The position numbers and the translations under genes are program-made. From the NCBI GenBank assembly GCA_046050355.1, contig JBJOPW010000004.1, positions 5,800 through 69,799 on the forward strand: DNA of 64,000 nucleotides, in the 5' to 3' direction. Below the pieces are notes generated by a model. It worked only from the letters and a program-made list of their open reading frames with translations. It was not told the origin of the DNA and did not search any database. Below, one piece after another: positions 12,728-39,627 of this stretch. The DNA is from Candidatus Parcubacteria bacterium. Its GTDB lineage: Bacteria > Patescibacteriota > Minisyncoccia > Phycocordibacterales > UBA918. Numbering within the stretch: position 1 is the first letter of the stretch; each line of letters opens with the position of its first letter.

Positions 12728-12802
12728 TTCACAAAGACGAAATTGTTGACAGGCTGCAACATGGTGTTGCAGCTTTTTTGTACTGGTATTTAGGAGGTAC
12801 CC

Positions 12803-15971: not shown

Positions 15972-15989
15972 TTTTGCTAGCATTTCCTT

Positions 15990-16871: not shown

Positions 16872-17025
16872 GCCTAACTGGGGAACTTCGCCCAAGCAGA
16901 AGTTCCACTGTCTAGGGCAGGATGCGGCACGACCGTATTCTGAGCCTGGACCGTTCCTTATCAGAGCTATGCCGCAAGGCCTGCTCACTAGGCATGTGTC
17001 CTTTCCCAGAAACGTGGAGATACCC

Positions 17026-20765: not shown

Positions 20766-20776
20766 ACTCGATCAGG

Positions 20777-22639: not shown

Positions 22640-22655
22640 GGTCTTCTTCTTGAAT

Positions 22656-23420
22656 TTAGTTGCTAAAGTTCAGGCGAGCTTCGAGCTTGAGTATAGCATC
22701 TTTTCGTTCCCTGATCATGCTGTTCAGGGTGATCTTGCTTCCCATCTGGTGCTCGCGATTCAGCGTGGTCCGGAGCTCAGCAATCTCGCGTTCCAGTTTG
22801 TGAATCTCCCCGAGAATGACAGTGTGTTCCTTGGATGCCGAGATCGAGGCCGAAACGAACGTCCCGGTCCTGTCCGAGGTGATCAGCCCGATGACCTGGC
22901 TCTGGAATGCTTCATAGAGGGCATAAAAGTTGGTGGCGGGAAGCCGGTGAAGCTGAATGGCCTCCAGGAAGGCCGCCTGTGATGTCGAAGGCTTGTTCGG
23001 ATCGATCCATTCGGTCTGCCAACGATCCACCAACACGAGCTTGGACTTGTCGGCCTGGTTGATCCGCTTTTCCGCAACACTGATGGCGATCTTGCCCGCG
23101 TGCTCGAACGCCAGGATCAGCGGATATGGAATGGCCCGGTGCATGAAGGCTGCGACGCGATTGAGGCGAGCAGGATTCGACAGCTCGACCGAAAGGACGG
23201 CGATCTCCAGGTATTCTCGCTCGCTGTCCTGGAAGGGTGCGATGTTGATGGTGTCGGGCTTGAGCGTGTATTGCCAGCGGATGCGCCCGACATCCTCGCT
23301 CAGCGCCTTCCTGTCGGTCTGGTCTAGCTCTGCGTGATCGAGGAACATCTTCTTGTAGACCGGCTTGTCGAGCAAGCAGGCTTCAGGGATGCCAAGGCTG
23401 GAGAGGAAGGCGTCGATCAT
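22656..23420 (-). CDS. DUF4391-domain protein
   Basis: 254 aa. Sits between the SNF2 helicase and Mod in the same operon, a recurrent DUF4391 neighbourhood. Its start overlaps the helicase stop. Confidence 0.55.
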   Translation of the reverse strand: MIDAFLSSLGIPEACLLDKPVYKKMFLDHAELDQTDRKALSEDVGRIRWQYTLKPDTINIAPFQDSEREYLEIAVLSVELSNPARLNRVAAFMHRAIPYPLILAFEHAGKIAISVAEKRINQADKSKLVLVDRWQTEWIDPNKPSTSQAAFLEAIQLHRLPATNFYALYEAFQSQVIGLITSDRTGTFVSASISASKEHTVILGEIHKLEREIAELRTTLNREHQMGSKITLNSMIRERKDAILKLEARLNFSN

Positions 23421-26400
23421 GCTGCGGCTTGGATAACGAGGAAGCTCACAACCTCAAAATCGTCTCCGCCCTTGAGGTGATCTTTGGTGAGCGCCGTACC
23501 GCCACGGGAAAAGAGGCTCTCGACGCCCTTTTCTTCAGTCTTGCCGACGACGCTCTCTATGGCGCGATCCAGCAGCTCTCGATAGGCGCTCATATCGCGC
23601 CCGTTCTTGGTTTTGGTGTTAAGGGCGTCGATGCTGGCGCGGTCTAGCTCAGTCGCAGACGCGGCGAGCTTCTTGTATACGTCCAGGCTCTTTTTGGCCT
23701 GAAGGTGATTGAACACGATGGTGCCCGCCTCGGAGACATAGATGAGGTAGAATGGCGTGAGCGCGTAGCTGTCTTCGTTCTGCACCTTACCCTTAAGGTC
23801 GCGCAGGCAGAAGATCACGCCTGGCACGGCTTGGTCAATGTTGGGCGACACAACCGCGTGAAAGCCGGTTGGTGAGCCTTCCAGGCGCTTCAGGTTTTCC
23901 TTCATGAAGCTGGACAAATCCATGCGGAAGTCGTTCAGCGTCATGTCGGTGATGGAGACGCTGCCATCCATGTCCTCAAGATCGATGACGGCATCTTGGA
24001 GCTGCTGCATTTGTTTGCGACGGTATTCCAGATCGTTCATCTGCTTGTTTTCGTCATATTCGATGACGTTCTCTTCGCCGGTCGCGGAGATGTCCAAGAG
24101 CACCATGCGACCGCTCACGCGGGCTTCGAGGTTGATATACTCGTCGAGCTGCATGTTAGGCCAGAAATTGGTGAGCTGGATCGCGGCGTTCTTCGATCCT
24201 AAGCGGTCCACGCGCCCGAAGCGCTGGATGATCCGCACCGGGTTCCAGTGGATGTCGTAATTGACTAGCATGTCGCAGTCCTGAAGGTTCTGGCCTTCCG
24301 AAATGCAGTCCGTGGCGATCAGGATGTCGATGTCAGTCGTGGCATCGGGGTCGATCTTGTCGCGCTCTTTTGAAACCGGCGAAAAATTAGTCAGGATGCT
24401 GTTGAGGTCGCGCGGCAAGCCGTCGATGGTGCAGCGGTTGGTTCCACTACCCGTCACGAGCGCGCTGTGGAGGCCAAATTCCTTCAGCGCCCAGGTGTGT
24501 ATGTGCTTGAAAAGATATTCAGCCGTGTCGGAGAAGGCGGTGAAAACGATGACCTTGTTGTTGCCAGGGTTGATCGGCGTTTTGAGCTTGGCGGCAATGG
24601 TGTCCTTCAGCTTTTGGAGCTTGGCATCGTCCGCAGCCGCAATCTTCCGCGCCTCGTCGAGCAGGTAGCCTAAAAGGATGTGATCGGCTTCGAGGTCCTG
24701 ACGCATCCGGATGAGGTCCAGGTCCTGGATCAGCACCTTGACCTTTCGGCCAATCATAAGGTCTTCGAGTTCGGGAGAATCTGCCTCGATGTCCTCGATG
24801 AGCAATTCCTCGATTTCCGTAGCCTCATGAGCATCGATCTTCGCGAGGAAGTTGCCGACCTGAGCATGAATCTTCTCGACGGTGAGAGCGAAGGAATGGA
24901 TCGAGCTCTCCATCCGCTTAAGCATGTTGACGCGCATGAGGTGGATCAGGCTGCGCTCCCGGTCCACCTGCTTGAGCGTCGATTTCCCACCTTTGACTTG
25001 TTGGTCGTACTTGCGGCTGTAATCGTCCTGCTTGTCGGCGCGCACATAATCCAGGGGCGCGTAGGCCGCCAGAGAAAGCTTCTTGATTGAGCGGTTGATG
25101 TCCTTGAGCGGCGGGAACCGGCCATCCTTGTCGATGTCCGACTTCACATTCTGCGGCTTCAGACGCTCGGGGAATTTCCCGATTTCCGCAGTGTCGTAAT
25201 ACTTCTCGATATGCCGCCGCGACCGCGCGATGGTAAGCAGGTCGAGTAGCTTGAAATAGCCGAAGTTAAGGCTTTCGAGCAGCCCTTCGGTGGTGCGGCT
25301 TTCAGCCGGTAGCTTCAGCCAGGTGTTGAACTGCGTCTGCGCGCGACGGAGTGTAACTTCTATGCTTTGAATGCCCGCATCGGCTAGCGCTTTGTCCTGC
25401 CCTTCGGTGATGAAGGCGACCTGGTTCTTCAGGTCATTCAGGCGATTGTTCACCGGGGTGGCGGAGAGCATCAGGACTTTGGTTTTGACGCCTTTCCGGA
25501 TTACCTCGTCCATCAGCCGCTGGTAGCGAGTGATCTTGTCTTTGCTCGGGTTGTTGTTTCGGAAATTGTGGGACTCGTCGATGACGATGAGGTCGTAGTT
25601 GCCCCAGTTGATCGTCTCCAGGTTAATCTCACCGGAGCGACCCGTCTCGCGGCTCAAGTCTGTGTGGTTCAGGACATCAAAGTTGAAGCGATCAGCCGCA
25701 AGCAAGTTGCGCTTGTCGTTGATCGTGTAGACAGTCCAGTTTTCTCGGAGCTTCTTGGGCGCGAGCACCAGAACGCGGTCATTGCGCAGTTCGTAGTATT
25801 TTATGACGGCCAGCGCCTCGAACGTCTTACCCAAACCGACGCTGTCGGCGATGATGCAACCGTTGTAACGCTCAAGCTTGTCGATAGCGCCGAGAACGCC
25901 GTCTTTCTGGAACTTGTAGAGCTTGTTCCAAACTAACGTGTCCTTAAAGCCAGTCTTCGACCGTATGATGCTTTCCTCATCGATTTCCTCGATGAAGTCC
26001 CTGAAGATATTGAACAGGGTGATGAAGTAGAGAAGGTTCGCAGGCTTATCGGAGGCGAGGAAATCAAGGCTTTCAAGCACCGCATCCTTTGCATTGCGAA
26101 CGGCAGTTGGATCATTCCAGATTGTCTCGAACCAGTTGAGCAACTGCTTCGTTGCCTCCGGGTCTTTCGCCACGGTGTTCATCGCAAAGCTGTTGGATCG
26201 CACAACGCCAAGACCAGCGGCTGTAAAGTCCGAAGTGCCAGCGACGGCAACCACTTCACCAAGGGGTGGTTGAATGTGAAAAATATTCTGCGCGATAGGC
26301 GCTCCTGCGAGCTGTCGGACCTGAGCCTTCTTTCGAACCCATTCCGCACACTCGGCGGCGATGCGCTGGAGGTTCAGCTCATTCTTCAGGCCAATCTCTT

Positions 26401-26668
26401 CAGTGGTCCCGGCTAGAGGCAGCGGGAGAGCGGCATCAGGTCGCGCCAAGAGAATGCGCAAGTCCTGAACCTTGTTGAGCTCTGACTTCAGGGCGGAATA
26501 ACCAAAAACGGAAAACCAGGCGGTCAAAACCAACATTTTCGAGTCTGGGCTCAAGGCCGCTCGAAGTTCGTCTACGACCTTGCCGTGGACCTTGTTATCT
26601 AGAAGCATGTGGACTTTTGCCTTGCCTGAAGAGTCGTCGTATGTGGTTGATTTTTTATGGGAATCCAT
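23417..26668 (-). CDS. SNF2-family helicase with an N-terminal PLD-like nuclease domain
   Basis: SNF2 motifs I (ADSVGLGKT), II (DLIVIDESHNFRN), and V/VI (QRFGRVDRLGS). The N-terminal ~250 aa are PLD-like. Start placed at 26668 from an internal ATG with an AAAGG ribosome-binding site. Confidence 0.75.
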   Translation of the reverse strand: MDSHKKSTTYDDSSGKAKVHMLLDNKVHGKVVDELRAALSPDSKMLVLTAWFSVFGYSALKSELNKVQDLRILLARPDAALPLPLAGTTEEIGLKNELNLQRIAAECAEWVRKKAQVRQLAGAPIAQNIFHIQPPLGEVVAVAGTSDFTAAGLGVVRSNSFAMNTVAKDPEATKQLLNWFETIWNDPTAVRNAKDAVLESLDFLASDKPANLLYFITLFNIFRDFIEEIDEESIIRSKTGFKDTLVWNKLYKFQKDGVLGAIDKLERYNGCIIADSVGLGKTFEALAVIKYYELRNDRVLVLAPKKLRENWTVYTINDKRNLLAADRFNFDVLNHTDLSRETGRSGEINLETINWGNYDLIVIDESHNFRNNNPSKDKITRYQRLMDEVIRKGVKTKVLMLSATPVNNRLNDLKNQVAFITEGQDKALADAGIQSIEVTLRRAQTQFNTWLKLPAESRTTEGLLESLNFGYFKLLDLLTIARSRRHIEKYYDTAEIGKFPERLKPQNVKSDIDKDGRFPPLKDINRSIKKLSLAAYAPLDYVRADKQDDYSRKYDQQVKGGKSTLKQVDRERSLIHLMRVNMLKRMESSIHSFALTVEKIHAQVGNFLAKIDAHEATEIEELLIEDIEADSPELEDLMIGRKVKVLIQDLDLIRMRQDLEADHILLGYLLDEARKIAAADDAKLQKLKDTIAAKLKTPINPGNNKVIVFTAFSDTAEYLFKHIHTWALKEFGLHSALVTGSGTNRCTIDGLPRDLNSILTNFSPVSKERDKIDPDATTDIDILIATDCISEGQNLQDCDMLVNYDIHWNPVRIIQRFGRVDRLGSKNAAIQLTNFWPNMQLDEYINLEARVSGRMVLLDISATGEENVIEYDENKQMNDLEYRRKQMQQLQDAVIDLEDMDGSVSITDMTLNDFRMDLSSFMKENLKRLEGSPTGFHAVVSPNIDQAVPGVIFCLRDLKGKVQNEDSYALTPFYLIYVSEAGTIVFNHLQAKKSLDVYKKLAASATELDRASIDALNTKTKNGRDMSAYRELLDRAIESVVGKTEEKGVESLFSRGGTALTKDHLKGGDDFEVVSFLVIQAAA

Positions 26669-26774
26669 GCCTTTTCTAGTCTCATTATCATTCCACAGAT
26701 CGAGACTACAAGCAAAGGTTGGGTGACCGGATTCTGCAGACCCGGCCACCCGCGCTCCCACAAGGGGAGGGTCG

Positions 26775-27472: not shown

Positions 27473-27800
27473 TCTCGTGGTGCGATCATACTCTCAGGCG
27501 CGGCCACGGCTGCGCTTGGGCCGCCTAGATCGTTGATCGACCGGAGGTGGTCTAGAAGGTGGACCGGATTCTCAGCGCTCTACAAAAGCTATATTTTTCA
27601 GTGCATTGGAAAATTTAGTGGTGCCCAGAGCCGGAATGGGATTGCCGGAACATTCCAACACATAGCCTTGCATTTTCAATTTCTTAGACCAAGTCGCGGC
27701 TCCAAGGGCAACACATCGCCGAACATCGCTGAACATACAATCACAACCCTTGAGGTGGACTAAAAGGTGGACTAGAAAAGGTGGACTGCGGGAGGATTCG

Positions 27801-28961
27801 ATGGTTCTCTTGAACAGCCTGAACCCACTGAAAGCAAAGAACCTAGTCGCAGGAAAGCACGCTGACGGCCAAGGACTTTGGCTAGTGAAGAGTGAGCGCA
27901 CTCGGGGAAAGTGGGTTCTCCGCGTTGTCGTCCAAGGAAAGCGTCGGGAAATGGGTTTGGGCCGGTGGCCTGACGTCTCCATTGCTGAAGCGCGTGAGTT
28001 GGCCGCGGAGGCGCGGAGGAAGCTCCGGACAGGCATCGATCCGATAGCTCAACGTGTTGAAGGCCGGAAGAAAGTCGTACGCCTAACGGTACAACAAGCA
28101 GTGGACGCGTGCTTCGAGGCACGAAAAGCAGAACTCAAGAGCGACGGCGAGGCGGGTCGCTGGATGTCTCCGCTCTCAGTCCACGTGCTGCCGGTGATTG
28201 GAAAGACTGCGATAGAGGACGTCGATCAACATGTGCTGAAGAAAGCTTTGGAGCCCATCTGGCACTCAAAGGCCGACACAGCTCGAAAAGCTCTAAACCG
28301 CCTCAGCTTGACCCTAAAGCATGCGGCTGCACTTGGACTGGAAGTAGACCTCCAGGCAACGATGAAGGTCCGGGCTCTCCTAGGCAAACAAAGGCACGTG
28401 TCCGAACACATTCCTTCGATGCCATACAAAGACGCACCGGCCTTCTATCGCTGGCTCTCCGAACAGACCTCGGCGGCAGCCCTACCGCTTCGCTTCCTCA
28501 TTTTGACAGCTGCCCGAACTGGAGAGGTGCGCTATGCTCGGCATAGCTACATTGAGGACAAAGTTCTTACACTCCCTCCCGAGATCACAAAGACCGGGCG
28601 TGAACACAAAATTCCGCTTACATCGGAAGCCGCAGCAGTGATCAACGCTGCGAAGCTGCAAGACAGCCAGGACCTGTTGTTCCCTTCCCCAACCGGAAAG
28701 ACCTTCTCTGATGCGACAATGTCACGATTAATGCAGCGTGAAGGCCTAGTTTATAGGCCCCATGGCTTCAGGGCCACATTCCGGACGTGGGTCGAAGAAC
28801 AAACTGACACTCCTCTCGAAGTGGCTGAGGCCGCACTCGGGCACGTCGTAGAGGGACAGGTCATCCGGGCCTACCAACGATCTGATCGACTTGAGAAACG
28901 ACGATCCTTGCTAGTCAAATGGAGCAAGTATCTGCAAGACACAGGACACCCCAACCCATAG
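27801..28961 (+). CDS. int: Tyrosine site-specific integrase (P4-like phage integrase family)
   Basis: GGGAGGA ribosome-binding site before the ATG at 27801. The C-terminal catalytic region HGFRATFRTW ... LGHV ... RAYQR has the R..HxxR..Y signature. Confidence 0.85.
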   Translation: MVLLNSLNPLKAKNLVAGKHADGQGLWLVKSERTRGKWVLRVVVQGKRREMGLGRWPDVSIAEARELAAEARRKLRTGIDPIAQRVEGRKKVVRLTVQQAVDACFEARKAELKSDGEAGRWMSPLSVHVLPVIGKTAIEDVDQHVLKKALEPIWHSKADTARKALNRLSLTLKHAAALGLEVDLQATMKVRALLGKQRHVSEHIPSMPYKDAPAFYRWLSEQTSAAALPLRFLILTAARTGEVRYARHSYIEDKVLTLPPEITKTGREHKIPLTSEAAAVINAAKLQDSQDLLFPSPTGKTFSDATMSRLMQREGLVYRPHGFRATFRTWVEEQTDTPLEVAEAALGHVVEGQVIRAYQRSDRLEKRRSLLVKWSKYLQDTGHPNP

Positions 28962-29738: not shown

Positions 29739-29943
29739 TACCCACTCCCGAATCTAACGATTCCTCATCAAATCGCAAGATTCTCATACCAGTCCCGGCA
29801 CTGCAAGATCAAGTCGCACGAGCGAGGTAACGATCCCAACAAACAACTGAAAATCGGTGTTTTACCAGTGACTCGTAGGCGTGCGACCATGGAGCCGCAG
29901 ATGAGAGCAACTGATCTGCGCGAACGTAGACGGGAGGAACAGA

Positions 29944-31272
29944 ATGCGCATCGCAATGGTTTACCCAGAAGTCTTCGACCTTGCACGGTTCAATGAAAAG
30001 CGGAAAGAGTTTCCGCCTTTTGGGGTAATGTACCTATCCGCCATGATGGAGCAGGCAGGGCACGTTGTCCAAGTATTTGCCATATCCTTCGAAACGAGTG
30101 CGATCGATTTCCGAGGCTTCGATGCAGTAGGATACTCCATCCCATCATCAGCAACTTTTGGTATAACAAAGAAGGTACGGTTTGCTAGTAAGTACGACGA
30201 GGGGGCACTGATCATGGCTGGTGGAGTACACGCAAACCTTTACCCACTGCAGACTCTGGATGAATTGGAACCGGACGTTGTTGGCATTGGTGAGTGCGAA
30301 CAGACCATACTCGACATCTTGGAGAGGGGTAAGAATGCGGATTTTGGTAACATCCTCGGAGTCGCCTTTAAGAAGAACGGGGAAGCAGTGAAGACACCTC
30401 CTCGTCGAGTAGATAAAGACATTGACTGGCTTCCACTTCCATCCCGACACCTCCTGCCTCGGTCAGACATTGTGATGAGCAATCGACTATCTAACACGGA
30501 CATCGAAATGGCCCACGTCATGTTCACACGTGGATGCCCGTTTCCGTGCAGGTTCTGTGCAGTTGCGCAAACTAAGATACAGTATCGCTCAGGCGCCAGC
30601 GCAAGACGTGAAATAGTTCACCTAATGGAAACTTATGGAATAGGTGGTTTCGCCATTGTCGATGACAATTTCATCGTTGACAAGCGTAAGGTTCATGACG
30701 TAGCCGAAAGCATCCAAGACCTCGGTGTAAAATGGTCGGCTCTTTCCCGAGTCGACACCATTGACAAAGAACTGCTCACGGCAATGGCCTCATCCGGATG
30801 CATCGAAATTAAGTTTGGAATGGAGTCAGGGAGTCAGAGAATTCTTGATGCAATGCAGAAAAACACGACCCCGGAACAGATCCTAGAGGCCGCAAGGCTT
30901 TCATATGAAGCCGGCATCAAGGCCAAGTTCTTTATTGTTCATGGTTATCCTGGTGAAAACATGGAGACCACAGCCGAGACAATCGCCCTCCTTGATAGAG
31001 CTAAAAGATATGTAGATCGAGTTTCGCTCTTCAGGTTTGCCCCATTGCCGGGGACATATGTCTACAATCACCCTGAAGAGTTCGGCCTCCGGGGAACGGA
31101 CCGGCAAGCAGACTGGGATGGCAACTGGGATAAATATCATATTTATCACAATGCGTACCACTGGTGGGGAACGGATGATCAATTTGAAGAGCTGAACAGG
31201 GCGCACACGGAGATCTCCAACTATATTGACGAAACTTGGCCAGCGACTTTTCAACCGCCCCAAAATGTGTAA
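29944..31272 (+). CDS. B12-binding-domain radical SAM protein (class B radical SAM family)
   Basis: N-terminal B12-binding-like Rossmann region, then FTRGCPFPCRFCAV (CxxxCxxC). 442 aa. Confidence 0.8.
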   Translation: MRIAMVYPEVFDLARFNEKRKEFPPFGVMYLSAMMEQAGHVVQVFAISFETSAIDFRGFDAVGYSIPSSATFGITKKVRFASKYDEGALIMAGGVHANLYPLQTLDELEPDVVGIGECEQTILDILERGKNADFGNILGVAFKKNGEAVKTPPRRVDKDIDWLPLPSRHLLPRSDIVMSNRLSNTDIEMAHVMFTRGCPFPCRFCAVAQTKIQYRSGASARREIVHLMETYGIGGFAIVDDNFIVDKRKVHDVAESIQDLGVKWSALSRVDTIDKELLTAMASSGCIEIKFGMESGSQRILDAMQKNTTPEQILEAARLSYEAGIKAKFFIVHGYPGENMETTAETIALLDRAKRYVDRVSLFRFAPLPGTYVYNHPEEFGLRGTDRQADWDGNWDKYHIYHNAYHWWGTDDQFEELNRAHTEISNYIDETWPATFQPPQNV

Positions 31273-31282
31273 AACTTAGAGA

Positions 31283-32029
31283 ATGGAGAGGATTGGAACT
31301 GTAGAAGCGGTGTTCCTACGCAAGGCACATGGCCGTGCTGTTGAGGAATCAACAGTCCTCAACTTAGTGGCTGATTTCGGGATCGTAGGGGATATCAACT
31401 TCTCGGCTTCGTCGCCTCGCCATTTGCTACTTAAGAGGATTGGACGTCCAGGCGATTGGACGGACAACGCCGGTTACTTCAATGAAAACGTTTCTTTCAC
31501 TTCTGAAAGTCTGAATTCGCTTCGTCCGGGAGACATCGTAAGAGTTGGCTCCGCAACTCTCCTCGTTCGTTCAAAAAATGAGCGGTGCAACATTTTTGCG
31601 CCAGAGGTCCGCGTGGCACGAGGCCTTCATTGTGTTTGCATAGACGCCGGATCCATTCGTCGTTCGGATGACATCATAAAGCTCGGTAGCGTTTCTATCG
31701 CAGAGGACAGTCGCGCGGCACTATTGGTAACGGGCCTCAGGGCTGTTCCGCTCGGAAGAGTGGTGACTTTTGAAGATGCATGCACTATGATTGGTGGCAG
31801 CCGCCCACACTTGCGGATCATTCCAAGACTGCTAAAGATTGCAATTACTTTGCATCCAACTGGGGTTCCATTTCACAGGTTAGTCAAATCTAAGGGTGAT
31901 CTAATTGACAACATTGTCACTGATCAGATGCTCCTCCTGGCGGCGGAAGGTATATCGACTTCAAACGGAAGAACTGTAAATCTTCAGTTCCGTCATGTTT
32001 TCGGGAGAAACCCATTTTGCGAAATGTAA
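31283..32029 (+). CDS. MOSC-like beta-barrel domain protein (putative)
   Basis: 248 aa. GD...PGDIVRVGSATLLVRSKNERCNIF resembles the MOSC PCxxL Cys motif. Moderate. Confidence 0.4.
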   Translation: MERIGTVEAVFLRKAHGRAVEESTVLNLVADFGIVGDINFSASSPRHLLLKRIGRPGDWTDNAGYFNENVSFTSESLNSLRPGDIVRVGSATLLVRSKNERCNIFAPEVRVARGLHCVCIDAGSIRRSDDIIKLGSVSIAEDSRAALLVTGLRAVPLGRVVTFEDACTMIGGSRPHLRIIPRLLKIAITLHPTGVPFHRLVKSKGDLIDNIVTDQMLLLAAEGISTSNGRTVNLQFRHVFGRNPFCEM

Positions 32030-32433
32030 GCTGCTTTGTCTCGATGGCAATTGAAGCTCGTGAAGCACTTAGTGAAGAGCTCTCCGCAATTAAGAGTGTG
32101 TGCAGTAGATTTGGTGTTAGAGCCCATGTCTTCCTAGATGAATACTCATTTGAGAAAGGCAAAGAATCCCAAATGATGGCGGAGGTCGTTTCGTGTATTA
32201 ATGGCTGTGATTTCTTGATTGCTGAAGTAAGCAAGAAGGCGATTGGGGTGGGGTGTGAGGTTGGCATCGCTGCAGCATTGGGAAAGCCGGTGATCTATTG
32301 TCGGCAGGCAGGGAGTCCAGCTTCGCTGACGGTTGGCGGACTGGCAAGTTTTACTCTGACTTATAGTGAAGCCAACGAACTTGCGCGGAAACTAAGTTTC
32401 GTATTAGAGAACAGGTTCTTCGAGTCCGACTAG
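32017..32433 (+). CDS. Nucleoside 2-deoxyribosyltransferase-like (NDT/SLOG-fold) protein
   Basis: CDFLIAEVSKKAIGVGCEVGIAAALGKPVIY matches the NDT-family D..IA..G...E.G.A.A.GKPV motif. An alternative start at 32044 is possible. Confidence 0.5.
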   Translation: MRNVSCFVSMAIEAREALSEELSAIKSVCSRFGVRAHVFLDEYSFEKGKESQMMAEVVSCINGCDFLIAEVSKKAIGVGCEVGIAAALGKPVIYCRQAGSPASLTVGGLASFTLTYSEANELARKLSFVLENRFFESD

Positions 32434-32864: not shown

Positions 32865-33107
32865 ATGTCCGAGAAATACAAATTCAAAGTTGAGAATGAA
32901 ACCTACGAGTGGGGCGATGCAACCATCACCGCAGCGGAAGTACGCGGGGTCGGTCCAGGGATTCCTGATAGCATGGATCTCTTTGTGAAGCTTCCCGGAA
33001 AGCCTGCGCGCTTAGTGTCGGATCCAGGCGAAGTCTTTGATCTCTCGAAGCCGGGAATCGAGAAATTCTTTGCGCAGAACTCATCGTCGGAAGCGGGCGC
33101 CAACTAA
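32865..33107 (+). CDS. Ubiquitin-like beta-grasp protein (Multiubiquitin-type single domain)
   Basis: 80 aa. Pattern KFKVENETYEWGDATITAAEVRG...PGIEKFF resembles prokaryotic Multiubiq/Ubl partners of E1/E2/JAB operons. The stop is 2 bp before the E2 gene. Confidence 0.45.
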   Translation: MSEKYKFKVENETYEWGDATITAAEVRGVGPGIPDSMDLFVKLPGKPARLVSDPGEVFDLSKPGIEKFFAQNSSSEAGAN

Positions 33108-33109
33108 TT

Positions 33110-33517
33110 ATGCCGTTATTGTTCGAAGATGACTACGAGTACTTGAAAAGTACTGGGCTAAAGTACGATGAGTACACGGACCAGCGCTTCTTGGTGGTCA
33201 GGGCTTACCCCGTTCCGGAGGGTAAGTACATCTTCGAAGGACAACCGGTTCGGACGGTCGATGTCCTGTCCATTATCCCGCCAAACTACAACACCGAAGG
33301 CTGCGACATGTTCTGGGTGCACCCAGCGATATCGCGTGCTGATGGAAAGCCCATTCCGGCAACTGGCGGCGACGACAGAGTCTTCGACAACACGACCTTC
33401 GTTCGTTGGTCCAGGCACTGGCCTGCCGGTCGATGGAGACCCAAGGTTGATACAATAGAGACCATATTGAGCCGTATCGACTGGGCCTTGCATAACCCAG
33501 ACCCTGCTGAAGCATGA
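33110..33517 (+). CDS. Prokaryotic E2-like (UBC-fold) protein
   Basis: 135 aa. IIPPNYNTEGCDMFWVHP has the HPN-like ... Cys arrangement. Overlaps the E1 gene by 4 bp (ATGA coupling). Confidence 0.5.
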   Translation: MPLLFEDDYEYLKSTGLKYDEYTDQRFLVVRAYPVPEGKYIFEGQPVRTVDVLSIIPPNYNTEGCDMFWVHPAISRADGKPIPATGGDDRVFDNTTFVRWSRHWPAGRWRPKVDTIETILSRIDWALHNPDPAEA

Positions 33518-34965
33518 GCCAACCCCGCATCACCCTCCTGCAATCACATCGAGAGCGCTTGGAGCGTTGGTTACCGTCTCATCCAGAGCATCACGAACGT
33601 GCCGCTGTAGTACTGTTCCGCTCGTTTGCACGAGAGGTACTGGAACAGACTCAATCAGAACGGCTCGTCTCGGTCGACGTGATCGAAATGACTGATGACT
33701 GGCTCGTGGAGAGCTCAGTCATCAGTGTCAAAGTCAACCTTCGAAAGCTTGTGGATCTGTATTTCCGCTGTGAGCAGGAGGGCTTACACTTAGGCTTCGT
33801 ACATAGTCACCCACTTGGTGCTGACGCCTTCTCGGGTCAGGACGATCAGAACGAACAAAACATCTTGCGGGGCTACGCTGGCTGCAATGGACGAGACTCA
33901 AGATTGGTGGCTCTTGTCTACGTCGACGGCGAGTGGATTGGTCGGGTGCGTTATGCGACCAAGCCAACCGAGAGCTCGCCTGTTCGTCACATACTTACAC
34001 TGGGGGAAACCCTTGCTGTACACCATTTGACCAACCCGGAGGGTGATCTGGCTACACTGGAGCGACAGGCGGCCGCTTTCGGTCGACCATTTAATCAAAA
34101 GCTTCAGTCTCTTAGAGTTGCAGTGGTTGGGTGCGGAGGTACCGGCTCACCAACTGCTACCCTTCTGGCTCGCGCAGGTGTCGGCGAACTTATTCTCATT
34201 GATGGTGACAACCTAGAGGAAAGCAATCTCAACCGGGTTCGAGGCTTGCGGAGAGATGATGTCGGACACAACAAGGCAGAGAGGCTGTGTTCGTACATCC
34301 GCTCCTTATCCCTGCCAACATCCGTGTCGTTTGTCCCCAATTATCTTGAGGACAATCGGGCAGCTGTCGACGCACTTTCCTCAGCCGATGTCGTATTCGG
34401 CTGCACCGACACCGTGGCAAGTCGAGAACTCTTAAACGAGGCTCTGTACTATTATGGGTTTGTGCTCATTGATTGCGGACTGTCGGGAGAAGTTGCCAGC
34501 ACTGCTGATGGGAAACCAAGGCTCATTGAGCATCGCGGTCGCGTAAGCACCGTGCAGCCCGAAACTGGAGCTTGCCTGCGCTGCCAAGGGGTCGTCACAG
34601 ACAACAAACTGAGATACGAGAGAGCGGTCAACGAGAACCCAGAGCTCAAGAAGCTCGACGCCAAAACGCTGCTCCGCGAACATTATCTAGTTGGCGGAGG
34701 CGAAGCCGCTCCGGGGGTCGGACCGTTCACTAGCGCAACTGCCGATCTTGCTGTCTCCTCACTATTTGAACTCATTCATCCATACAGACAACTGGGCGGC
34801 GATTTCCGTCCTGACAATATTTGGCAAGATTACTTGCATATGACTTATCACAGTAACGAGCCCCGAAACCTTTCTGCCGATTGTTATTGCTGTGGCACGC
34901 GCGCGATCCTACTGAAGCGTGAGCGTCAAGTTCTACTGGACAGACCGGCACTTGGTACGATTTGA
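33514..34965 (+). CDS. JAB/MPN (JAMM) metalloprotease fused to an E1-like ThiF/MoeB adenylyltransferase
   Basis: JAMM motif HLGFVHSHPLGADAFSGQD (HxHx7Sx2D). ThiF Rossmann motif VAVVGCGGTGSPTATLLARAGVGELILIDGD. C-terminal CxxC pairs. Confidence 0.8.
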   Translation: MSQPRITLLQSHRERLERWLPSHPEHHERAAVVLFRSFAREVLEQTQSERLVSVDVIEMTDDWLVESSVISVKVNLRKLVDLYFRCEQEGLHLGFVHSHPLGADAFSGQDDQNEQNILRGYAGCNGRDSRLVALVYVDGEWIGRVRYATKPTESSPVRHILTLGETLAVHHLTNPEGDLATLERQAAAFGRPFNQKLQSLRVAVVGCGGTGSPTATLLARAGVGELILIDGDNLEESNLNRVRGLRRDDVGHNKAERLCSYIRSLSLPTSVSFVPNYLEDNRAAVDALSSADVVFGCTDTVASRELLNEALYYYGFVLIDCGLSGEVASTADGKPRLIEHRGRVSTVQPETGACLRCQGVVTDNKLRYERAVNENPELKKLDAKTLLREHYLVGGGEAAPGVGPFTSATADLAVSSLFELIHPYRQLGGDFRPDNIWQDYLHMTYHSNEPRNLSADCYCCGTRAILLKRERQVLLDRPALGTI

Positions 34966-34966
34966 T

Positions 34967-35401
34967 ATGAATCTAGGCATTCCCAAGATATTTCTAAACT
35001 TCTGGAAGAAAGCACGGCTTCCAGAAATCCAAGAACCTACCAATCATGTGAGGCACTATCAAGCTGCCCTGATCTTGGAAAGAACACCAAGCAACTCGGC
35101 AATCGGAGATCGCGATTTTGTATTCGTGATCTATGAGACCGTTCCACGGTGGGCACTGTTTCGATGCCCCTGCGGCTGTAGCGAAGTCATCAGCCTACCC
35201 CTAGCTGCTCCACACAATCCTCGATGGGCCGTCTATGTCGACGAGGATGGCTTCGCTTCTCTGTATCCATCCGTTTGGCGCAACACTGGCTGCATGAGTC
35301 ACTTTGTAATTCGCTCAGGATGTGTATTCTGGGCGAATAAGAGCGGGGTCAGCCCATTTGAAGCCAGCCCAAATTTCTATAAGCCTCGCATTCCCAAGTA
35401 G
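34967..35401 (+). CDS. Cys-rich putative zinc-binding protein, fourth gene of the Ubl operon
   Basis: CPCGC...GCMSHF...SGC cysteine clusters. The ATG at 34967 lies 1 nt after the E1 stop; a longer ORF from 34919 is possible. Confidence 0.4.
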   Translation: MNLGIPKIFLNFWKKARLPEIQEPTNHVRHYQAALILERTPSNSAIGDRDFVFVIYETVPRWALFRCPCGCSEVISLPLAAPHNPRWAVYVDEDGFASLYPSVWRNTGCMSHFVIRSGCVFWANKSGVSPFEASPNFYKPRIPK

Positions 35402-35415
35402 AAGGGACGTGAGCT

Positions 35416-36837
35416 CTAGTATTCCCAGCGAACAAAATAGCCAGACCGTCCATAGCAGTCGTATCCGCGCTTGTCCTTATGTGCCTTGAGCATTGTCCCG
35501 GAGCTCTTCCTCTTGAACTCTTTTCCGCAGTAGGTACATGCGATCACCTGAAGGGGTCCACCAGAGTAGGTTGAAGGCCTGCGATTCACTCGACCCGCCG
35601 AACTTCCTCCTCGCTTTGTCTGGGCACCAAGCCGACCGCCTCCTCCAAAGTAGGAATTTTCTGGCAGCTCACCTGCTTTTGACAGTTCGACCTCGAAGCG
35701 CGGTTCGAACTTTTCTTCAAGTATCTGTGGCTTCTCAACTTTTGGATTAACCAGGGACTTGATTCCGGTTGACCCTGAGGCACCTCCAGTTCGATCCCAC
35801 ACATAGAAGTATTCGCGCGGAGACCCGTCCGATGGACGTTTGTAGCTTAGAGCGTAAGGTTCGACGACCCTCTCGTATCCGTCATAGGTTAGTCGGATAA
35901 GCCGTTGTTGAGACCCGGCTTCCAAGAAGACGTTACGAAGTTCTGCCGGAAAGAAGGCATCGCTTATGCGATCTGCCATACCGCTCGTTTCGAATACACT
36001 ATCGACGAACCGCGTGTACGCTTCTGTCGCGGTGTCGAAGTCTATTTTGCTTGCTGCCGGGCAAACTATGTATTTCTCCCATGCCGCCCGGAAGAAGGCC
36101 ATGGGGAGACCAAGGAGTATTTGCCGAGCTGAACCCGGACTTCGTTCAAAGATGGTCTTCTTGAGAAAGACGCTTGCAATTGTTGATCGATCAAGGTCAA
36201 TCCGATCATCAAAGAACGCAGCGTAAACTAGATCGTAGAGATCATGGGAGTGACGACGTTGCAGCAAGCATTTGAGCTTAGATGCCATGCCCTCTTCGAG
36301 AGCAACACATCTAAGATTTACTCTGCAGACATCTGAATCCGAATATGGATGAATAAGTGGAACCGTGCTCACTGGAAGATACAAGCGGTCGAACTCTGTC
36401 ACATCCATCCGAACTGAAATTTCCAGCGCGCTTTTCTGGCCATAGAAATCTTCGAAGAAGACCTTTCCCTTGTAGATTTTTCTGTCGGTGTTTTTGCCGA
36501 GATTGGCCCGTGCGGCTTCTTTGAAAGAGCTTCTCTCACTTACAAACTTGATACCCGATACAGCTTGAGCCATCTTGCAGCTACGTTCAATTTGAGCAGT
36601 CAGTTCATCCAAGTCAACTGCACGTTCAGTTGAGAAATCCAGGTCAGAGGAGAACCTGGTGTTCGGAAAGTACGCTTTTCGGAAGCAGTTTCCGCCCTTT
36701 AGGATGAGAAGGTCACTGAGATACTCATTTTGGTATATTGCAAACAGGAGCCAGCCGAAGACGTAGTCACGCTGAACATTCGAGGTATTGATCTCGAATT
36801 CAGCAGATTTCTGGTCGATTTCATCTCTCTCGATCAT
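35416..36837 (-). CDS. AbiEii/DUF1814-type nucleotidyltransferase fused to a WYL-like domain and a C-terminal zinc ribbon
   Basis: NTase motif LKGGNCFRKAYF...SSDLDFS. WYL-like LIRLTYDGYERVVEPYAL...EYFYVWD. C-terminal CTYCGKEF...C. Confidence 0.7.
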   Translation of the reverse strand: MIERDEIDQKSAEFEINTSNVQRDYVFGWLLFAIYQNEYLSDLLILKGGNCFRKAYFPNTRFSSDLDFSTERAVDLDELTAQIERSCKMAQAVSGIKFVSERSSFKEAARANLGKNTDRKIYKGKVFFEDFYGQKSALEISVRMDVTEFDRLYLPVSTVPLIHPYSDSDVCRVNLRCVALEEGMASKLKCLLQRRHSHDLYDLVYAAFFDDRIDLDRSTIASVFLKKTIFERSPGSARQILLGLPMAFFRAAWEKYIVCPAASKIDFDTATEAYTRFVDSVFETSGMADRISDAFFPAELRNVFLEAGSQQRLIRLTYDGYERVVEPYALSYKRPSDGSPREYFYVWDRTGGASGSTGIKSLVNPKVEKPQILEEKFEPRFEVELSKAGELPENSYFGGGGRLGAQTKRGGSSAGRVNRRPSTYSGGPLQVIACTYCGKEFKRKSSGTMLKAHKDKRGYDCYGRSGYFVRWEY

Positions 36838-37532: not shown

Positions 37533-38672
37533 ATGAAAGCGCCTGAAGTAAGTACAATGAATGAGGCTCGCGCGGCTCATGCGGAGTTCACTTTGCAACG
37601 TGCCGCTTTTTCATTTTTTCAAGAAAATATAGAACTGTGTTCCAAACCACCTCGTGATGTAATGCCAGAGATTATTGCAGAGTTGCCAGAGTCGCCCAAA
37701 TTACTCTCGAAACAAGAGATGGATCTATGGCTCAAAGAGAATACCTCAATGAGCGGTCAGCGGTTACATATGGACGTCGGGGCGCCATCAAAATTGGAAT
37801 CCTATATTTTGTTTTTACTCATGACAACCAGTCCAAAAAGTACACAATTTGAAACAACGGATATAGAAACTACAGGTGACAGATTTTCATTAGTTGATAG
37901 TATACAAATTTTGCGTGATGAGGTACGAACTAAGCGTTTCCTGATGGGTATCAAAGAGGCAGTTGCAAACCTTCTTACAACCAAAGATAATATACTTGTT
38001 TGCGATGCCGGTTGCGGAGCGATTCCTATTTTAGGTATACAAGCAGCATTGCAATCGCCAAATGTGCAGGTTGTTTGTATTGAGAGCAATCCCGAATCGG
38101 TTATTATGGCGCGTGAATGTATTAATGCGTTTAATCTTGGTAATCAAGTGTTGGTTATAGAAGGAGACGCACGTGAATATAAGCCAAAGAGAGAAATTGA
38201 TCTTGTTATTTCTGAGACAATGGATATTGGCTTACTTAATGAGCCAATGTGTGACATTATGTCGAGTTTAAAACCTTTCACATCAAATGATAGCATTTTC
38301 ATTCCAGAACAAGTAGAAGTATTGGCAACAGCATTAACAGCGTCTGATTATGATAGTGCTGATAGTTACGCCCTTATTGATAAGGATTGTTGGCCAGTTA
38401 TTCAAACAAAGTGGCAAGTTATCGGTAGCTACAAAGCAGGTGATTTGAGTCCGTATTTTGAAAGTGATATTTCGGTACCGCAGAATAATGAAGCAAAAAT
38501 TCCACTAATAAGTTCAAGGGTAAAAATTCATGATTCAGTGCCAACTCTCGATTTTTGCGAAAGCCGCCTTACAGCATTTTTGCCTTTGCCTGGAAGCCTC
38601 CAGTCGCGTGATAGTAAACTACATATTTCGTATCGAGCGGGTGATTCGATCAAAGAAGTACAAATAGCATGA
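37533..38672 (+). CDS. Class I SAM-dependent methyltransferase, PRMT-like
   Basis: Motif I VCDAGCGAIPI; post-I IDLVISETMDIGLLNEPM resembles the PRMT motif. Confidence 0.5.
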   Translation: MKAPEVSTMNEARAAHAEFTLQRAAFSFFQENIELCSKPPRDVMPEIIAELPESPKLLSKQEMDLWLKENTSMSGQRLHMDVGAPSKLESYILFLLMTTSPKSTQFETTDIETTGDRFSLVDSIQILRDEVRTKRFLMGIKEAVANLLTTKDNILVCDAGCGAIPILGIQAALQSPNVQVVCIESNPESVIMARECINAFNLGNQVLVIEGDAREYKPKREIDLVISETMDIGLLNEPMCDIMSSLKPFTSNDSIFIPEQVEVLATALTASDYDSADSYALIDKDCWPVIQTKWQVIGSYKAGDLSPYFESDISVPQNNEAKIPLISSRVKIHDSVPTLDFCESRLTAFLPLPGSLQSRDSKLHISYRAGDSIKEVQIA

Positions 38673-38700
38673 CCAGCATAAATGTATACATAGCAATGTT

Positions 38701-39318
38701 ATGCAATACGGCGTAGATGTGGCGAGCACCCGGCTTGATGATCTCGATAAACGAGTGTTGGCAGATGTGCGTGAACGTATCGGTCGTGTGGAGGAGGTGT
38801 CAGTGCTTGATGTTGGGTGCGGGCAGGGTGGCTTGGCGCTGGTACTGACTCAAGCTGGAGCCATTGTTACTGCACTTGATATTCCTGACTACAGTTCGGC
38901 CTTTCAAAATGAGACTGCTGCGACAATTGAATTTGTTCAGGCAGATGTCCGTGAGTGGATACAAAATAATACTGTTCAGTTTGATATGGTCGTGCTGCAA
39001 CGCGTACTCCATTATCTACCGAATCATGAAGCTAAGAAGCTTCTGAGAGCACTGCGAGATGTGACCGCTACACTCTATCTGTCAGTGACCGGCACGACGA
39101 CTGCCATCGCGAGTCACTATGACAAAGTCCACGAGCTAATCGAGAGGCGGTGGGGTGTACTTGATACAGTGGGGCAGGAATTATTTTCTATCACTGCACC
39201 GGTGTGTCTCTATAGTAAGGAGGAGTTACTTGAGCTCCTCAAGGACTGTGGGTGGGAGGTAGTGTGGTCGCGAGTGTCTGATTTTGGGAATATTAAGGTG
39301 GTGGCTCGAGGGAGTTAA
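38701..39318 (+). CDS. Class I SAM-dependent methyltransferase
   Basis: VLDVGCGQGGLALVLTQAGAIVTALDI motif I; 205 aa. Confidence 0.6.
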   Translation: MQYGVDVASTRLDDLDKRVLADVRERIGRVEEVSVLDVGCGQGGLALVLTQAGAIVTALDIPDYSSAFQNETAATIEFVQADVREWIQNNTVQFDMVVLQRVLHYLPNHEAKKLLRALRDVTATLYLSVTGTTTAIASHYDKVHELIERRWGVLDTVGQELFSITAPVCLYSKEELLELLKDCGWEVVWSRVSDFGNIKVVARGS

Positions 39319-39389: not shown

Positions 39390-39546
39390 ACAGATAATTT
39401 CTTGCAGAAATTTCCGCGACCCCGCCTCATAGTCGCAGAGCGACATATTCCGGCTTTCAAGTCCCTCACGAAAGTAAAGCAGTTTGCTTTCTCTCCGGCT
39501 CATTAAAATCAAAATGCGCCATAAAGCGCATTAAGATTTTATATTG

Positions 39547-39627
39547 TGCCGGAGGAGGGACTTGAACCCTCACACCTTGCGATAATGGGTTTTGAATCCA
39601 TCGCGTCTACCATTCCGCCACTCCGGC
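39547..39627 (-). tRNA. tRNA-Leu (anticodon CAA)
   Basis: Reverse complement GCCGGAGTGGCGGAATGGTAGACGC...TTCAAAA...GGGTTCAAGTCCCTCCTCCGGCA closely parallels bacterial tRNA-Leu(CAA) with a long variable arm. Confidence 0.8.

Follow-up and report, generated by a model that had tools for sequence, protein, structure and literature searches.

A B12-binding radical SAM gene, a MOSC-ATL fusion gene and an NDT-fold gene form a conserved operon, a rare variant of a widespread mobile cassette

Viperins are radical SAM (rSAM) enzymes that turn a nucleotide into a polymerase-interfering analogue, and they are often paired with a nucleotide kinase. OxsB, a B12-binding rSAM enzyme encoded by plasmid-borne genes together with the phosphohydrolase OxsA, acts on dAMP, dADP or dATP, and the two enzymes yield the antiviral nucleoside oxetanocin A. 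The pre-replicative route of T4 employs a dCTPase, a dCMP hydroxymethylase and a dNMP kinase, and in the MilA/MilB and BcmA/BcmB pairs the NMP-modifying enzyme is followed by an NDT-fold N-glycosidase. The experimentally unproven PADLOC candidate PDC-M51 consists of two proteins, the rSAM M51A and the P-loop kinase M51B; we found no mention of it in the literature searched. Ophion is a three-gene defence system composed of the rSAM OpnA, the PHP protein OpnB and the phosphoribosyltransferase OpnC, for which nucleic-acid or nucleotide chemistry has been proposed (10.1101/2025.09.30.679545), and a validated defence system carries thymidylate synthase and dNMP kinase domains (10.1101/2025.01.08.631726).

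The locus described here lies in a metagenome-assembled genome annotated as Parcubacteria; the window, that is, the whole stretch of DNA analysed, is 64,000 nucleotides long. Three genes in it, encoding a B12-binding rSAM enzyme, a MOSC-ATL fusion and an NDT-fold protein, form a genuine, conserved operon (Table 1). The layout given in the initial annotation holds for co-orientation and overlap, while the first intergenic gap is 10 nt (31273-31282) rather than 11 bp. The overlap of the second and third genes amounts to 13 nt and is conditional on a TTG start of the NDT gene. The automatic gene call starts this gene at ATG 32044; we favor the TTG because GGGAG lies 9 nt before it (32003-32007) and because the added residues, SCFVSMA, match the N-terminal strand retained in homologues (CFFSVS, AFISIS). 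An integrase gene and a ubiquitin-like (Bub) cassette do flank the trio, as had been noted, and the element also carries AbiEii, a type III-like restriction-modification system and conjugation genes. Scans for sigma-70 promoters and terminators gave nothing above shuffled background, and a search for att sites as direct repeats gave nothing convincing. A divergent upstream gene (253 aa) was rejected as a fourth component: its product has no Pfam match and does not resemble what is encoded at the corresponding place in two related loci (L002, L004).

Table 1. Positions of the operon, its protein domains and the flanking modules in the window.
Feature	Position	Strand	Details
Shine-Dalgarno-like GGGAGG	29932..29937	+	6 nt upstream of the rSAM start codon; read off the sequence
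rSAM gene	29944-31272	+	442 aa
MOSC-ATL gene	31283-32029	+	248 aa
MOSC beta-barrel, N-terminal domain of the 248-aa protein	31283..31693	+	residues ~1-137
ATL (MGMT-fold) winged-helix, C-terminal domain of the 248-aa protein	31712..32029	+	residues ~144-248
NDT gene	32017-32433	+	138 aa from TTG start; 129 aa if ATG 32044
Integrase	27750-28961		flanks trio; Pfam
Multi_ubiq/E2/JAB-E1/DUF6527 (Bub) cassette	32865-35401		flanks trio; Pfam

The domain calls made at the outset (an rSAM with a B12 domain, MOSC, NDT) proved right, with Pfam matches for the rSAM and NDT proteins. In the rSAM enzyme, the Pfam B12-binding family (PF02310) matches residues 22-123 (E=3e-11, 43.6 bits against a cutoff of 32.1) and Radical_SAM matches residues 193-350 (E=6e-20). 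The CxxxCxxC motif of rSAM enzymes, which holds the [4Fe-4S] cluster (C198-x3-C202-x2-C205), is unchanged in 17 homologues. Motif and B12 domain together make this a class B (cobalamin-binding) rSAM enzyme, predicted to use cobalamin. Its family counts over 1,500 homologues, which are 50-71% identical and spread across phyla. None of the named B12-rSAM equivalogs (ApyD, HpnJ, BchE, MgmA, PhpK, BzaD and others) scored above its NCBIfam cutoff: the best, ApyD, reached 149 bits against a cutoff of 750, and all 25 listed were far below theirs. The nearest solved structures are likewise distant, with 9ccb first (E=2e-14), followed by AprD4 and TokK. By both comparisons, no rSAM of known substrate is similar enough for its function to be transferred. 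The B12-rSAM relatives matched in NCBIfam are mostly C-methylases or rearrangement enzymes.

The working logic that we propose resembles that of the viperins, with an rSAM-made nucleotide analogue and a kinase, but the window rSAM is not a viperin homologue: it is of the class B type with an N-terminal B12-binding domain, and in PADLOC it matched no viperin (pVip) model, only PDC-M51A and PDC-S05, both weakly. The cassette partners, moreover, speak for deoxynucleotides and for recognition in DNA, two features absent from viperin systems. OxsB with OxsA offers another analogy, as we propose for the cassette, too, a B12-rSAM and a nucleotide-processing partner working on deoxynucleotides. However, OxsB is not among the solved-structure sequence matches of the window rSAM at E≤1e-3, OxsA is an HD-domain enzyme whereas the cassette has an NDT-fold, MazG or NUDIX partner, and the cassette also encodes a DNA-lesion reader. 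PDC-M51, a defence-island candidate and the nearest entry on record, shows the same pairing of an rSAM with a nucleotide kinase. M51A matches the cassette rSAM (E=2e-11 in the window, 1e-12 in L028; 41-46 bits, profile positions 181-383 of 420) and M51B matches the thymidylate-kinase-like partner of L028 (E=4e-8, 31 bits). These matches are weak, however, and extend over the rSAM core without reaching the B12 domain; a kinase, furthermore, is missing from the window trio. The T4, Mil and Bcm routes have equal enzyme roles (dNTP pyrophosphatase, NMP-level modifier, dNMP kinase or NDT-fold N-glycosidase), but their modifier is ThyA-like where that of the cassette is a B12-rSAM, and the cassette resides in cells or on integrative and conjugative elements, while phage collections yielded no copy of it. 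Ophion differs in its partners, as no PHP or phosphoribosyltransferase gene was found in the cassette, and the term 'B12' is absent from the Ophion paper (10.1101/2025.09.30.679545).

The 248-aa protein had been read as MOSC alone, and its C-terminal ATL domain had been overlooked. The N-terminal part belongs to the MOSC beta-barrels; its MOSC-motif cysteine, C102, is invariant in 72 homologues, while the nearby C99, with a conservation of at least 90% across the MOSC-ATL family, is replaced by Asn in the rSAM-linked subclade. The C-terminal part has the ATL signature: an MGMT C-terminal fold that has lost the acceptor cysteine (PFHR instead of PCHR) and keeps the HTH as well as residues at the positions of the Arg finger and the HR motif. 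Across the 72 homologues the acceptor position is V, A, L or F, and H198 and R199 are invariant. In contrast to described ATL proteins, this domain is fused to a MOSC barrel. A word-indexed search with the MOSC-ATL protein returned only itself, while an exhaustive HMMER search returned 107 representatives. The broad alignment of the family had too little conservation in any stretch for scanning metagenomes, and a narrower one added only two loci, one of which is the same element as L004. Strict linkage of the fusion to the rSAM gene is ruled out: three distant members adjoin a peptidase M3, an Ig-like protein or a uracil-DNA glycosylase (UDG), and rSAM linkage is confined to the N-E-x-C subclade.

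The third protein matches Pfam Nuc_deoxyrib_tr (PF05014) with 35 bits against a cutoff of 28.8, and its best solved relatives are Rcl/DNPH1. The catalytic glutamate is kept (GVGCEVG aligns with GVGYELG of Rcl/DNPH1). In the TQPSLG stretch of Rcl the serine binds phosphate; this stretch aligns with SKKAIG in the window protein, and because the serine position is Ala there, the substrate class, dNMP or nucleoside, is uncertain. A second NDT-fold partner family (c6) was recognized by structure prediction, with MilB among its structural matches; profile comparison with the window NDT protein gave an hhalign probability of only 3.7%.

Co-occurrence of the three genes across genomes, on which the initial proposal depended, was found. 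The trio recurs in three or four further unrelated elements: in Verrucomicrobiales (L002, L007, L008), in a metagenome element (L004/L092) and in L093. Its order, orientation and tight spacing are repeated in these independent elements despite strongly diverged partners, the MOSC-ATL proteins being ~30-35% identical against ~70% for the rSAM. To place the trio in its wider family, we counted partners within 3 kb of the rSAM gene in 80 species-representative genomes. Partners are conserved family-wide in 75 of the 80 loci, with the rSAM as the conserved core. A DNA-lesion reader is present in 62 (AlkZ-like in 60, MOSC-ATL in 2), a non-canonical-nucleotide hydrolase in 63 (MazG 41, NUDIX 10, NDT 3, c6 9) and a kinase in 42 (thymidylate kinase 40, dNK-like 3). 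The commonest architecture, thymidylate kinase, rSAM, AlkZ-like and MazG, accounts for 33 loci. Other arrangements include a Ham1 gene directly after the rSAM gene (L072), a variant in Candidate Phyla Radiation (CPR) bacteria with the rSAM and an NDT-fold gene only and no DNA reader, and nine loci with an NDT-fold partner but no DNA-binding one. Most loci are actinobacterial; the others include Verrucomicrobia, CPR bacteria and conjugative elements. The window trio, which has no kinase, is a rare variant of a widespread mobile cassette in which a thymidylate-kinase-like gene is usually present as well.

The partners themselves are informative. The nearest relatives of the MazG partner are small all-alpha NTP pyrophosphatases, dCTP pyrophosphatase 1 among them, and those of the kinase partner are true thymidylate kinases; in L090 the kinase gene and the start of the rSAM gene share 4 nt. 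In the AlkZ-like partner a G-L-H-A-A-R stretch is conserved in 44 of 44 well-aligned sequences, and H51, A53 and R54 do not vary among 20 sequences aligned; its counterpart in AlkZ (5uuj) is Q37-A-Q39. The catalytic motif of AlkZ/YcaQ is (Q/H)-phi-(Q/D) (PMC9040887). The rSAM-linked clade has H-A-A-R in its place, matching neither this motif nor that of AZL2, and the second catalytic residue is missing. Judged by their residues, both the ATL domain and the AlkZ-like partner look more like readers of lesions than like standard enzymes. At one and the same position, different loci carry unrelated proteins that serve equivalent roles, which points to one pathway around a modified deoxynucleotide that is recognized in DNA. 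The same swap bears on the idea that MOSC is a self-protection enzyme, which does not hold as the conserved principle: 60 of the 80 related loci have instead an AlkZ-like HTH_42 protein without a MOSC domain, and what the two partners share is the binding of DNA lesions rather than MOSC chemistry. A modified nucleotide with built-in protection, as a general idea, does fit the wider family.

The genomic contexts of the cassette are mobile or defence-type at several loci. Two copies (L002, L091) lie among conjugative-transfer genes beside RadC or ArdC-RadC proteins, one (L004) is close to OLD/UvrD (Gabija-like) genes, one (L005) sits between PglX and PglY/PglZ in a BREX/Pgl locus, and in L090 a Shedu nuclease-domain gene is inserted between the AlkZ-like and MazG genes. 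On the other hand, the 105 nearest large neighbors span 140 Pfam families, among which no defence-related one recurs and many are ordinary metabolic genes. Because these flanks are heterogeneous and without a dominant defence family, the case for a defence role, as first proposed, is only suggestive. A functional link to the Bub operon was rejected: of ~85 loci, the window and L018 alone show it nearby, so that the adjacency reflects island co-location. Phage origin, or a phage hypermodification pathway, was likewise rejected: IMG/VR gave no relative, INPHARED gave a single distant, partial match (Streptomyces phage SF3, 31% identical), no PHROG was informative, and plasmids gave no close match.

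The combination still appears to be undescribed: the MOSC-ATL, AlkZ-like, MazG and NDT partners have no PADLOC model, and we found no NCBIfam entry or literature account of the whole. Literature searches for an rSAM with AlkZ, MOSC, ATL, DNPH1, MazG or thymidylate kinase gave no description, although a 2013 base-modification paper from the Aravind laboratory might predict one; no report pairing an AlkZ-like or ATL fold with an rSAM was found in the searchable literature, nor any description of a B12-rSAM in an anti-phage setting.

Our leading, tentative reading takes the trio as a single operon and as one version of a mobile cassette of three or four genes organized around a B12-rSAM that acts in deoxynucleotide chemistry. 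The substrate, chemistry, direction of flux and biological role that we infer are as follows. The rSAM would modify a deoxynucleotide at carbon, most likely by C-methylation, with a pyrimidine dNMP as a plausible product. Where present, the thymidylate-kinase-like or dNK-like kinase would drive this product toward the triphosphate and hence into replicating DNA, while the hydrolase would cap its level in the pool: here a DNPH1-like dNMP N-glycosidase, elsewhere MazG, NUDIX, Ham1 or another NDT-fold protein. The DNA-binding partner, MOSC-ATL here and elsewhere an AlkZ-like protein lacking the second catalytic residue, would read the modified base in DNA. The whole would be a poison-nucleotide or marking-nucleotide module with built-in control, used against invading DNA and traveling as cargo of integrative and conjugative elements and defence islands. 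The more specific proposition, that the B12-rSAM creates a new C-alkylated deoxynucleotide or DNA base detected by dedicated readers (glycosylase-dead AlkZ-like proteins or the MOSC-ATL fusion), is possible but doubtful. Several points count against the leading reading: the window variant is without a kinase and the CPR variant without a DNA reader, no defence-related family recurs among the sampled neighbors, no rSAM of known substrate is close enough to lend its function, the MOSC domain is given no role, making and destroying one nucleotide in one operon requires regulation and none is visible, and to our knowledge Parcubacteria-type organisms are not expected to make cobalamin or the molybdenum cofactor.

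The same partners raise the question of whether the modification takes place in the DNA itself. Here the rSAM would alkylate a base presented by its base-flipping ATL or HTH_42 partner, and the mark would shield the mobile element from restriction or label self DNA. Both DNA partners are indeed lesion- or base-recognition modules without standard catalytic residues, and the cassette occurs between conjugative-transfer genes beside ArdC/RadC anti-restriction-type proteins as well as inside a BREX/Pgl locus. Nevertheless, we consider this unlikely: the most conserved partners, the hydrolase (63/80) and the kinase (42/80), are free-nucleotide enzymes, and nine loci combine an NDT-fold partner with no DNA-binding one.

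Free-nucleotide enzymes also suggest sanitation, in which the partners would clear one non-canonical base from pool and DNA while the rSAM repairs or degrades that base. MazG, NUDIX, Ham1 and DNPH1-like proteins, all present in these loci, are classic house-cleaning families. AlkZ/YcaQ and ATL are damage-recognition proteins (PMC9040887), and the MOSC-ATL member beside a UDG gene outside the cassette fits as well. We judge this explanation distinctly unlikely, since a dNMP kinase translationally coupled to the rSAM poorly suits pure disposal, the patchy, horizontally transferred, mobile-element distribution is unusual for repair genes, and the B12-rSAM relatives are mostly C-methylases or rearrangement enzymes. 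Another reading is an alternative, thymidylate-like synthesis of 5-methyl-pyrimidines, with a MazG or NUDIX dUTP/dCTP pyrophosphatase supplying the dNMP, the rSAM methylating C5 and the thymidylate-kinase paralogue phosphorylating the product. The commonest architecture, with its kinase paralogue and its MazG related to dCTP pyrophosphatase 1, has this form, and thymidylate synthase with dNMP kinase modules occur in phages and in at least one validated defence system. Yet a DNPH1-like N-glycosidase and a DNA-lesion reader would be superfluous for thymidylate and there is no similarity to ThyA or ThyX, which makes this route improbable.

A small biosynthetic cluster whose product is a secreted genotoxic nucleoside antibiotic and whose self-resistance is of the AlkZ type has a precedent: AlkZ-like glycosylases confer self-resistance in Streptomyces gene clusters (PMC9040887), and most cassette loci are actinobacterial. 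It is nonetheless highly improbable, as there are no conserved exporter or tailoring genes (MFS in 4 of 105 neighbors), the AlkZ clade linked to the rSAM is without the second catalytic residue, and CPR bacteria, Verrucomicrobia and conjugative elements carry this cassette too; no recognizable biosynthetic gene cluster, which would have counted against the initial proposal, appeared in the contexts inspected. Chance adjacency of three unrelated accessory island genes, for which nothing but island heterogeneity speaks, is refuted by the co-occurrence data, both the repeated arrangement in independent elements with diverged partners and the partner conservation in 75 of 80 loci.

If the more specific proposition of a new base with dedicated readers is true, the cassette would be a new nucleotide-based immunity or DNA-marking system spread on conjugative elements among Actinobacteria, Verrucomicrobia and CPR bacteria. 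If the proposed function is right, a family of more than 1,500 rSAM enzymes would have a deoxynucleotide or DNA base as substrate. We know of very little B12-rSAM chemistry on deoxynucleotides or DNA bases, OxsB being the sole precedent known to us, and of almost nothing on defence in CPR bacteria. The cassette gives a first functional context to the AlkZ-like clade with the altered motif, to the MOSC-ATL fusion family and to an unannotated NDT-fold family of ~500 proteins. It may also, should the proposed function hold, lead to a natural nucleotide analogue or DNA modification that is new, to new reader domains for it, and to a new form of chemical immunity or anti-restriction on mobile elements, those of CPR bacteria included.

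The ORF listing of the window confirms the three co-oriented genes of the initial annotation. They code for a B12-binding radical SAM enzyme (rSAM), a MOSC protein with an alkyltransferase-like domain (MOSC-ATL) and a nucleoside-deoxyribosyltransferase-fold protein (NDT). The first gap measures 10 nt instead of the 11 bp originally given, and the reported MOSC-ATL/NDT overlap amounts to 13 nt, provided that NDT starts at TTG. An automatic gene call from elsewhere places this start at the ATG at 32044; judging from the sequence we would prefer TTG, because GGGAG lies 9 nt upstream of it and because the added residues SCFVSMA match an N-terminal strand that homologues conserve (CFFSVS and AFISIS in the related loci L004 and L002, respectively). 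Read directly, the sequence has GGGAGG upstream of the rSAM start codon; a consensus scan for promoters and terminators gave nothing exceeding shuffled background.

Positions of the genes and loci discussed
Locus	Feature	Position	Strand	Remarks
Window	DUF87/TrwB-like coupling ATPase	9606-10760	-	
Window	T4CP-like, DUF87/TrwB-like coupling ATPase	13887-15971	+	
Window	Replic_Relax relaxase	15990-16871	+	
Window	Putative type III-like restriction-modification or defence block	17772-26761	-	Four genes, upstream of integrase
Window	rSAM	29944-31272	+	442 aa
Window	MOSC-ATL	31283-32029	+	248 aa
Window	NDT	32017-32433	+	138 aa from TTG
Window	Bub-type ubiquitin-like operon	32865-35401	+	Complete
Window	AbiEii nucleotidyltransferase toxin	35416-36837	-	PADLOC E=2.5e-44
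Window	Two SAM-dependent methyltransferase genes	37533-39318	+	One PRMT5/TRM5-like match
Window	tRNA-Leu(CAA)	39546-39627	-	Just after methyltransferase genes, then parB
L005/L006	rSAM, AlkZ-like, NUDIX cassette within BREX/Pgl locus	3742-17338		
L028	AlkZ-like gene	8348-9532		
L059	c6 gene	8387-8785	-	
L089	MOSC-ATL member unlinked to rSAM	2546-4076		Directly upstream of UDG-family gene, near NrdR
L090	Shedu nuclease-domain (SduA_C) gene	12548-13744	-	

The rSAM protein combines the Pfam B12-binding and Radical_SAM domains, and its CxxxCxxC motif is invariant. Its homologues number over 1,500; the top 120, 53-71% identical at full length, are found in Streptomyces, Nonomuraea, Verrucomicrobia and numerous metagenomes. 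All NCBIfam B12-rSAM equivalogs were missed widely (ApyD, the best, gave 149 bits where the cutoff is 750), and the nearest solved structures are all distant: 9ccb (E=2e-14), then AprD4 and TokK. A literature search with the PDB code 9ccb led to work on MgmA, the MCR glutamine methylase, and to a review of B12-rSAM enzymes.

In MOSC-ATL, Pfam finds MOSC and DNA_binding_1 below threshold only, and an AlphaFold model (72 homologues, pLDDT 93) resolves two domains. The MOSC-like barrel with a conserved Cys, proposed at first reading, is borne out: C102, the MOSC cysteine, does not vary. The second domain has invariant H198 and R199, preceded by a variable residue (F in the window protein); it is therefore an alkyltransferase-like reader, not an alkyltransferase. 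The protein evolves fast. A word-indexed search returned only the protein itself, annotated as deriving from a Candidatus Parcubacteria MAG, and an exhaustive search returned 107 representatives, nearly all of ∼250 aa and matching over both domains. The third protein is indeed NDT-like, with Nuc_deoxyrib_tr above the Pfam threshold; its closest relative is Rcl/DNPH1, and the catalytic Glu is kept.

The co-occurrence proposed for the three genes also holds: the order rSAM, MOSC-ATL, NDT recurs around the closest rSAMs, in Verrucomicrobiales elements (L002, L003, L007, L008), in an unrelated metagenome element (L004, the same as L092) and on a short contig (L093). The MOSC-ATL proteins of these loci, which have in common an N-E-x-C motif specific to this subclade, show just ∼30-35% identity to that of the window. 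More distant members do not adjoin rSAM. One lies beside a UDG gene (L089), and its UDG-family and NrdR neighbours hint that the wider fusion family acts in DNA base repair.

We scanned one genome per GTDB species for rSAM, yielding 80 loci, and clustered all neighbouring ORFs, searched them with family HMMs and checked identities with Pfam. Within 3 kb of rSAM, 60 of the 80 loci carry an AlkZ-like HTH_42 protein and 2 carry MOSC-ATL; MazG is present in 41, NUDIX in 10, NDT of the window type in 3, and c6, a 133-aa family without a Pfam match, in 9; a thymidylate-kinase paralogue (TMK) occurs in 40 and a dNK-like kinase in 3. The most frequent architecture is TMK, rSAM, AlkZ-like, MazG (33 loci), and in L090 TMK overlaps the rSAM start by 4 nt. 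The five loci lacking any of these partners hold the most distant rSAMs, one of which is followed by Ham1. Small all-alpha NTP pyrophosphatases, dCTP pyrophosphatase 1 among them, are the nearest relatives of the MazG partner, and genuine thymidylate kinases those of TMK. Together, these counts and relationships indicate that three roles are retained, with different proteins replacing one another in each at the same position: a DNA-lesion reader, a hydrolase of a type that removes a non-canonical (d)NTP or dNMP, and a dNMP kinase. The c6 family (P0228-P0347; ∼133 aa, ∼495 sequences, mostly from Patescibacteria) has no Pfam or PHROG match; its fold is predicted at high confidence to be that of a nucleoside 2-deoxyribosyltransferase, and its gene is convergent, directly after rSAM, in the nine loci.

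The AlkZ-like proteins (L028 and 43 other loci) form a distinct clade within AlkZ/YcaQ-family HTH_42 that always adjoins rSAM. G-L-H-A-A-R is found in 44/44 well-aligned rSAM-linked sequences, its H, A and R are invariant in a 20-sequence alignment, and profile alignment to the AlkZ structure puts it on Q37-A-Q39. For AlkZ-family proteins the catalytic motif is published as (Q/H)-phi-(Q/D), and for AZL2 as (H/Q)-phi-(S/T)(D/E) (PMC9040887). The clade matches none of the YQL, AZL and AZL2 motifs, and with G-L-H-A-A-R where (Q/H)-phi-(Q/D) would stand it lacks the second catalytic residue. This altered motif, together with the Cys-less ATL domain, makes both partners look like altered-base binders rather than classical repair enzymes.

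What would such a set of partners do? Because they act on deoxynucleotides and DNA, rSAM itself most likely has a deoxynucleotide or DNA base as its substrate. The four hydrolase folds of the cassettes have one property in common: MazG, NUDIX, Ham1 and DNPH1 all clear a non-canonical nucleotide from the pool available to polymerases. A coupled dNMP kinase works in the opposite direction, moving a dNMP toward the triphosphate. In this scheme rSAM would produce a modified dNMP, the kinase would activate it, the hydrolase would limit it, and the DNA reader would recognise the modified base once incorporated. The simplest reading that uses every part is a nucleotide that poisons or marks and comes with its own control, and we consider it possible, at somewhat less than an even chance; it leaves the MOSC domain, the lack of a kinase in the window trio and the source of cofactors in a CPR host unaccounted for. 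Its rivals are direct DNA modification, a role purely in sanitation or repair, thymidylate-like synthesis, and the making of a secreted nucleoside antibiotic. In its logic the poison- or marking-nucleotide scheme can be compared with viperin and kinase pairs and with OxsB/OxsA. Similar too are the T4 route (dNTPase, modifying enzyme, dNMP kinase) and the MilA/MilB route, where an NDT-fold N-glycosidase follows an NMP-modifying enzyme.

The settings of related cassettes are diverse. In L002 and L091 the cassette has conjugative-transfer genes on one side and RadC or ArdC-RadC proteins on the other; in L004 it is near OLD-family/UvrD genes and an HD protein; in L005/L006 (Streptomyces aidingensis, Streptomyces sp. 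YIM 98790) it is inserted between PglX (Eco57I-type methylase) and PglY/PglZ of a BREX/Pgl locus; in L018 (Lacunisphaera) it sits beside a Bub operon, a PIN protein and an M78 peptidase; and in L090 (Solihabitans fulvus) the Shedu gene lies between AlkZ-like and MazG on the opposite strand. Among ∼85 loci, only the window and L018 have a Bub operon by the cassette. No cassette relative was found in IMG/VR and no close one in the plasmid collection, and INPHARED gave one distant partial match only. A Pfam census of the 105 nearest large neighbours (∼65 loci) comprised 140 families, many of the neighbours being ordinary metabolic genes; recurrence was confined to XRE-type HTH domains (9 and 6) and MFS (4). 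The cassette is therefore an autonomous unit within variable neighbourhoods, and its association with defence, based on a handful of inspected contexts and not on statistics, is suggestive.

The window element has a GC content of 55-58%, versus 42-48% in the distal flanks (53-58% versus 42-48% for the region at ∼7-36 kb). This excess, with conjugation-type genes of the same class as those flanking the L002 and L091 cassettes, is suggestive of an integrative conjugative element residing in a CPR genome. The element also carries AlpA, an H-NS-like gene, an integrase, the trio, the Bub operon (Multi_ubiq, 80 aa; Prok-E2_E, 135 aa; JAB-ThiF E1 fusion, 483 aa; DUF6527/BubE, 160 aa) and AbiEii, whose long C-terminal extension has weak WYL and zf-BED matches and for which no clear AbiEi partner was identified. 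The block upstream of the integrase, apparently a type III-like module for restriction-modification or defence, consists of a Res-type helicase-endonuclease (997 aa, RE_endonuc), an N6_N4 DNA methylase (620 aa), a DUF4391 protein (254 aa) and an SNF2-family helicase (1114 aa). The tRNA-Leu(CAA) gene is a possible integration site for the island; a direct repeat supporting this was sought, with nothing convincing found.

PADLOC has no models for MOSC-ATL, NDT, AlkZ-like, MazG or c6; its two-protein candidate PDC-M51, with no mention in the searchable literature, is weakly matched by the cassette rSAM and kinase. The three-gene rSAM system Ophion (10.1101/2025.09.30.679545) differs in its PHP and PRTase partners. 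Nucleotide-modification modules can act in defence, as shown by a validated E. coli system that has domains of thymidylate synthase and dNMP kinase (10.1101/2025.01.08.631726). The initial annotation knew of no defence system with the trio's combination, and we likewise found no description in the literature searched. The trio would be one more nucleotide-chemistry conflict system built on an rSAM enzyme, with a real chance that the chemistry itself is new.
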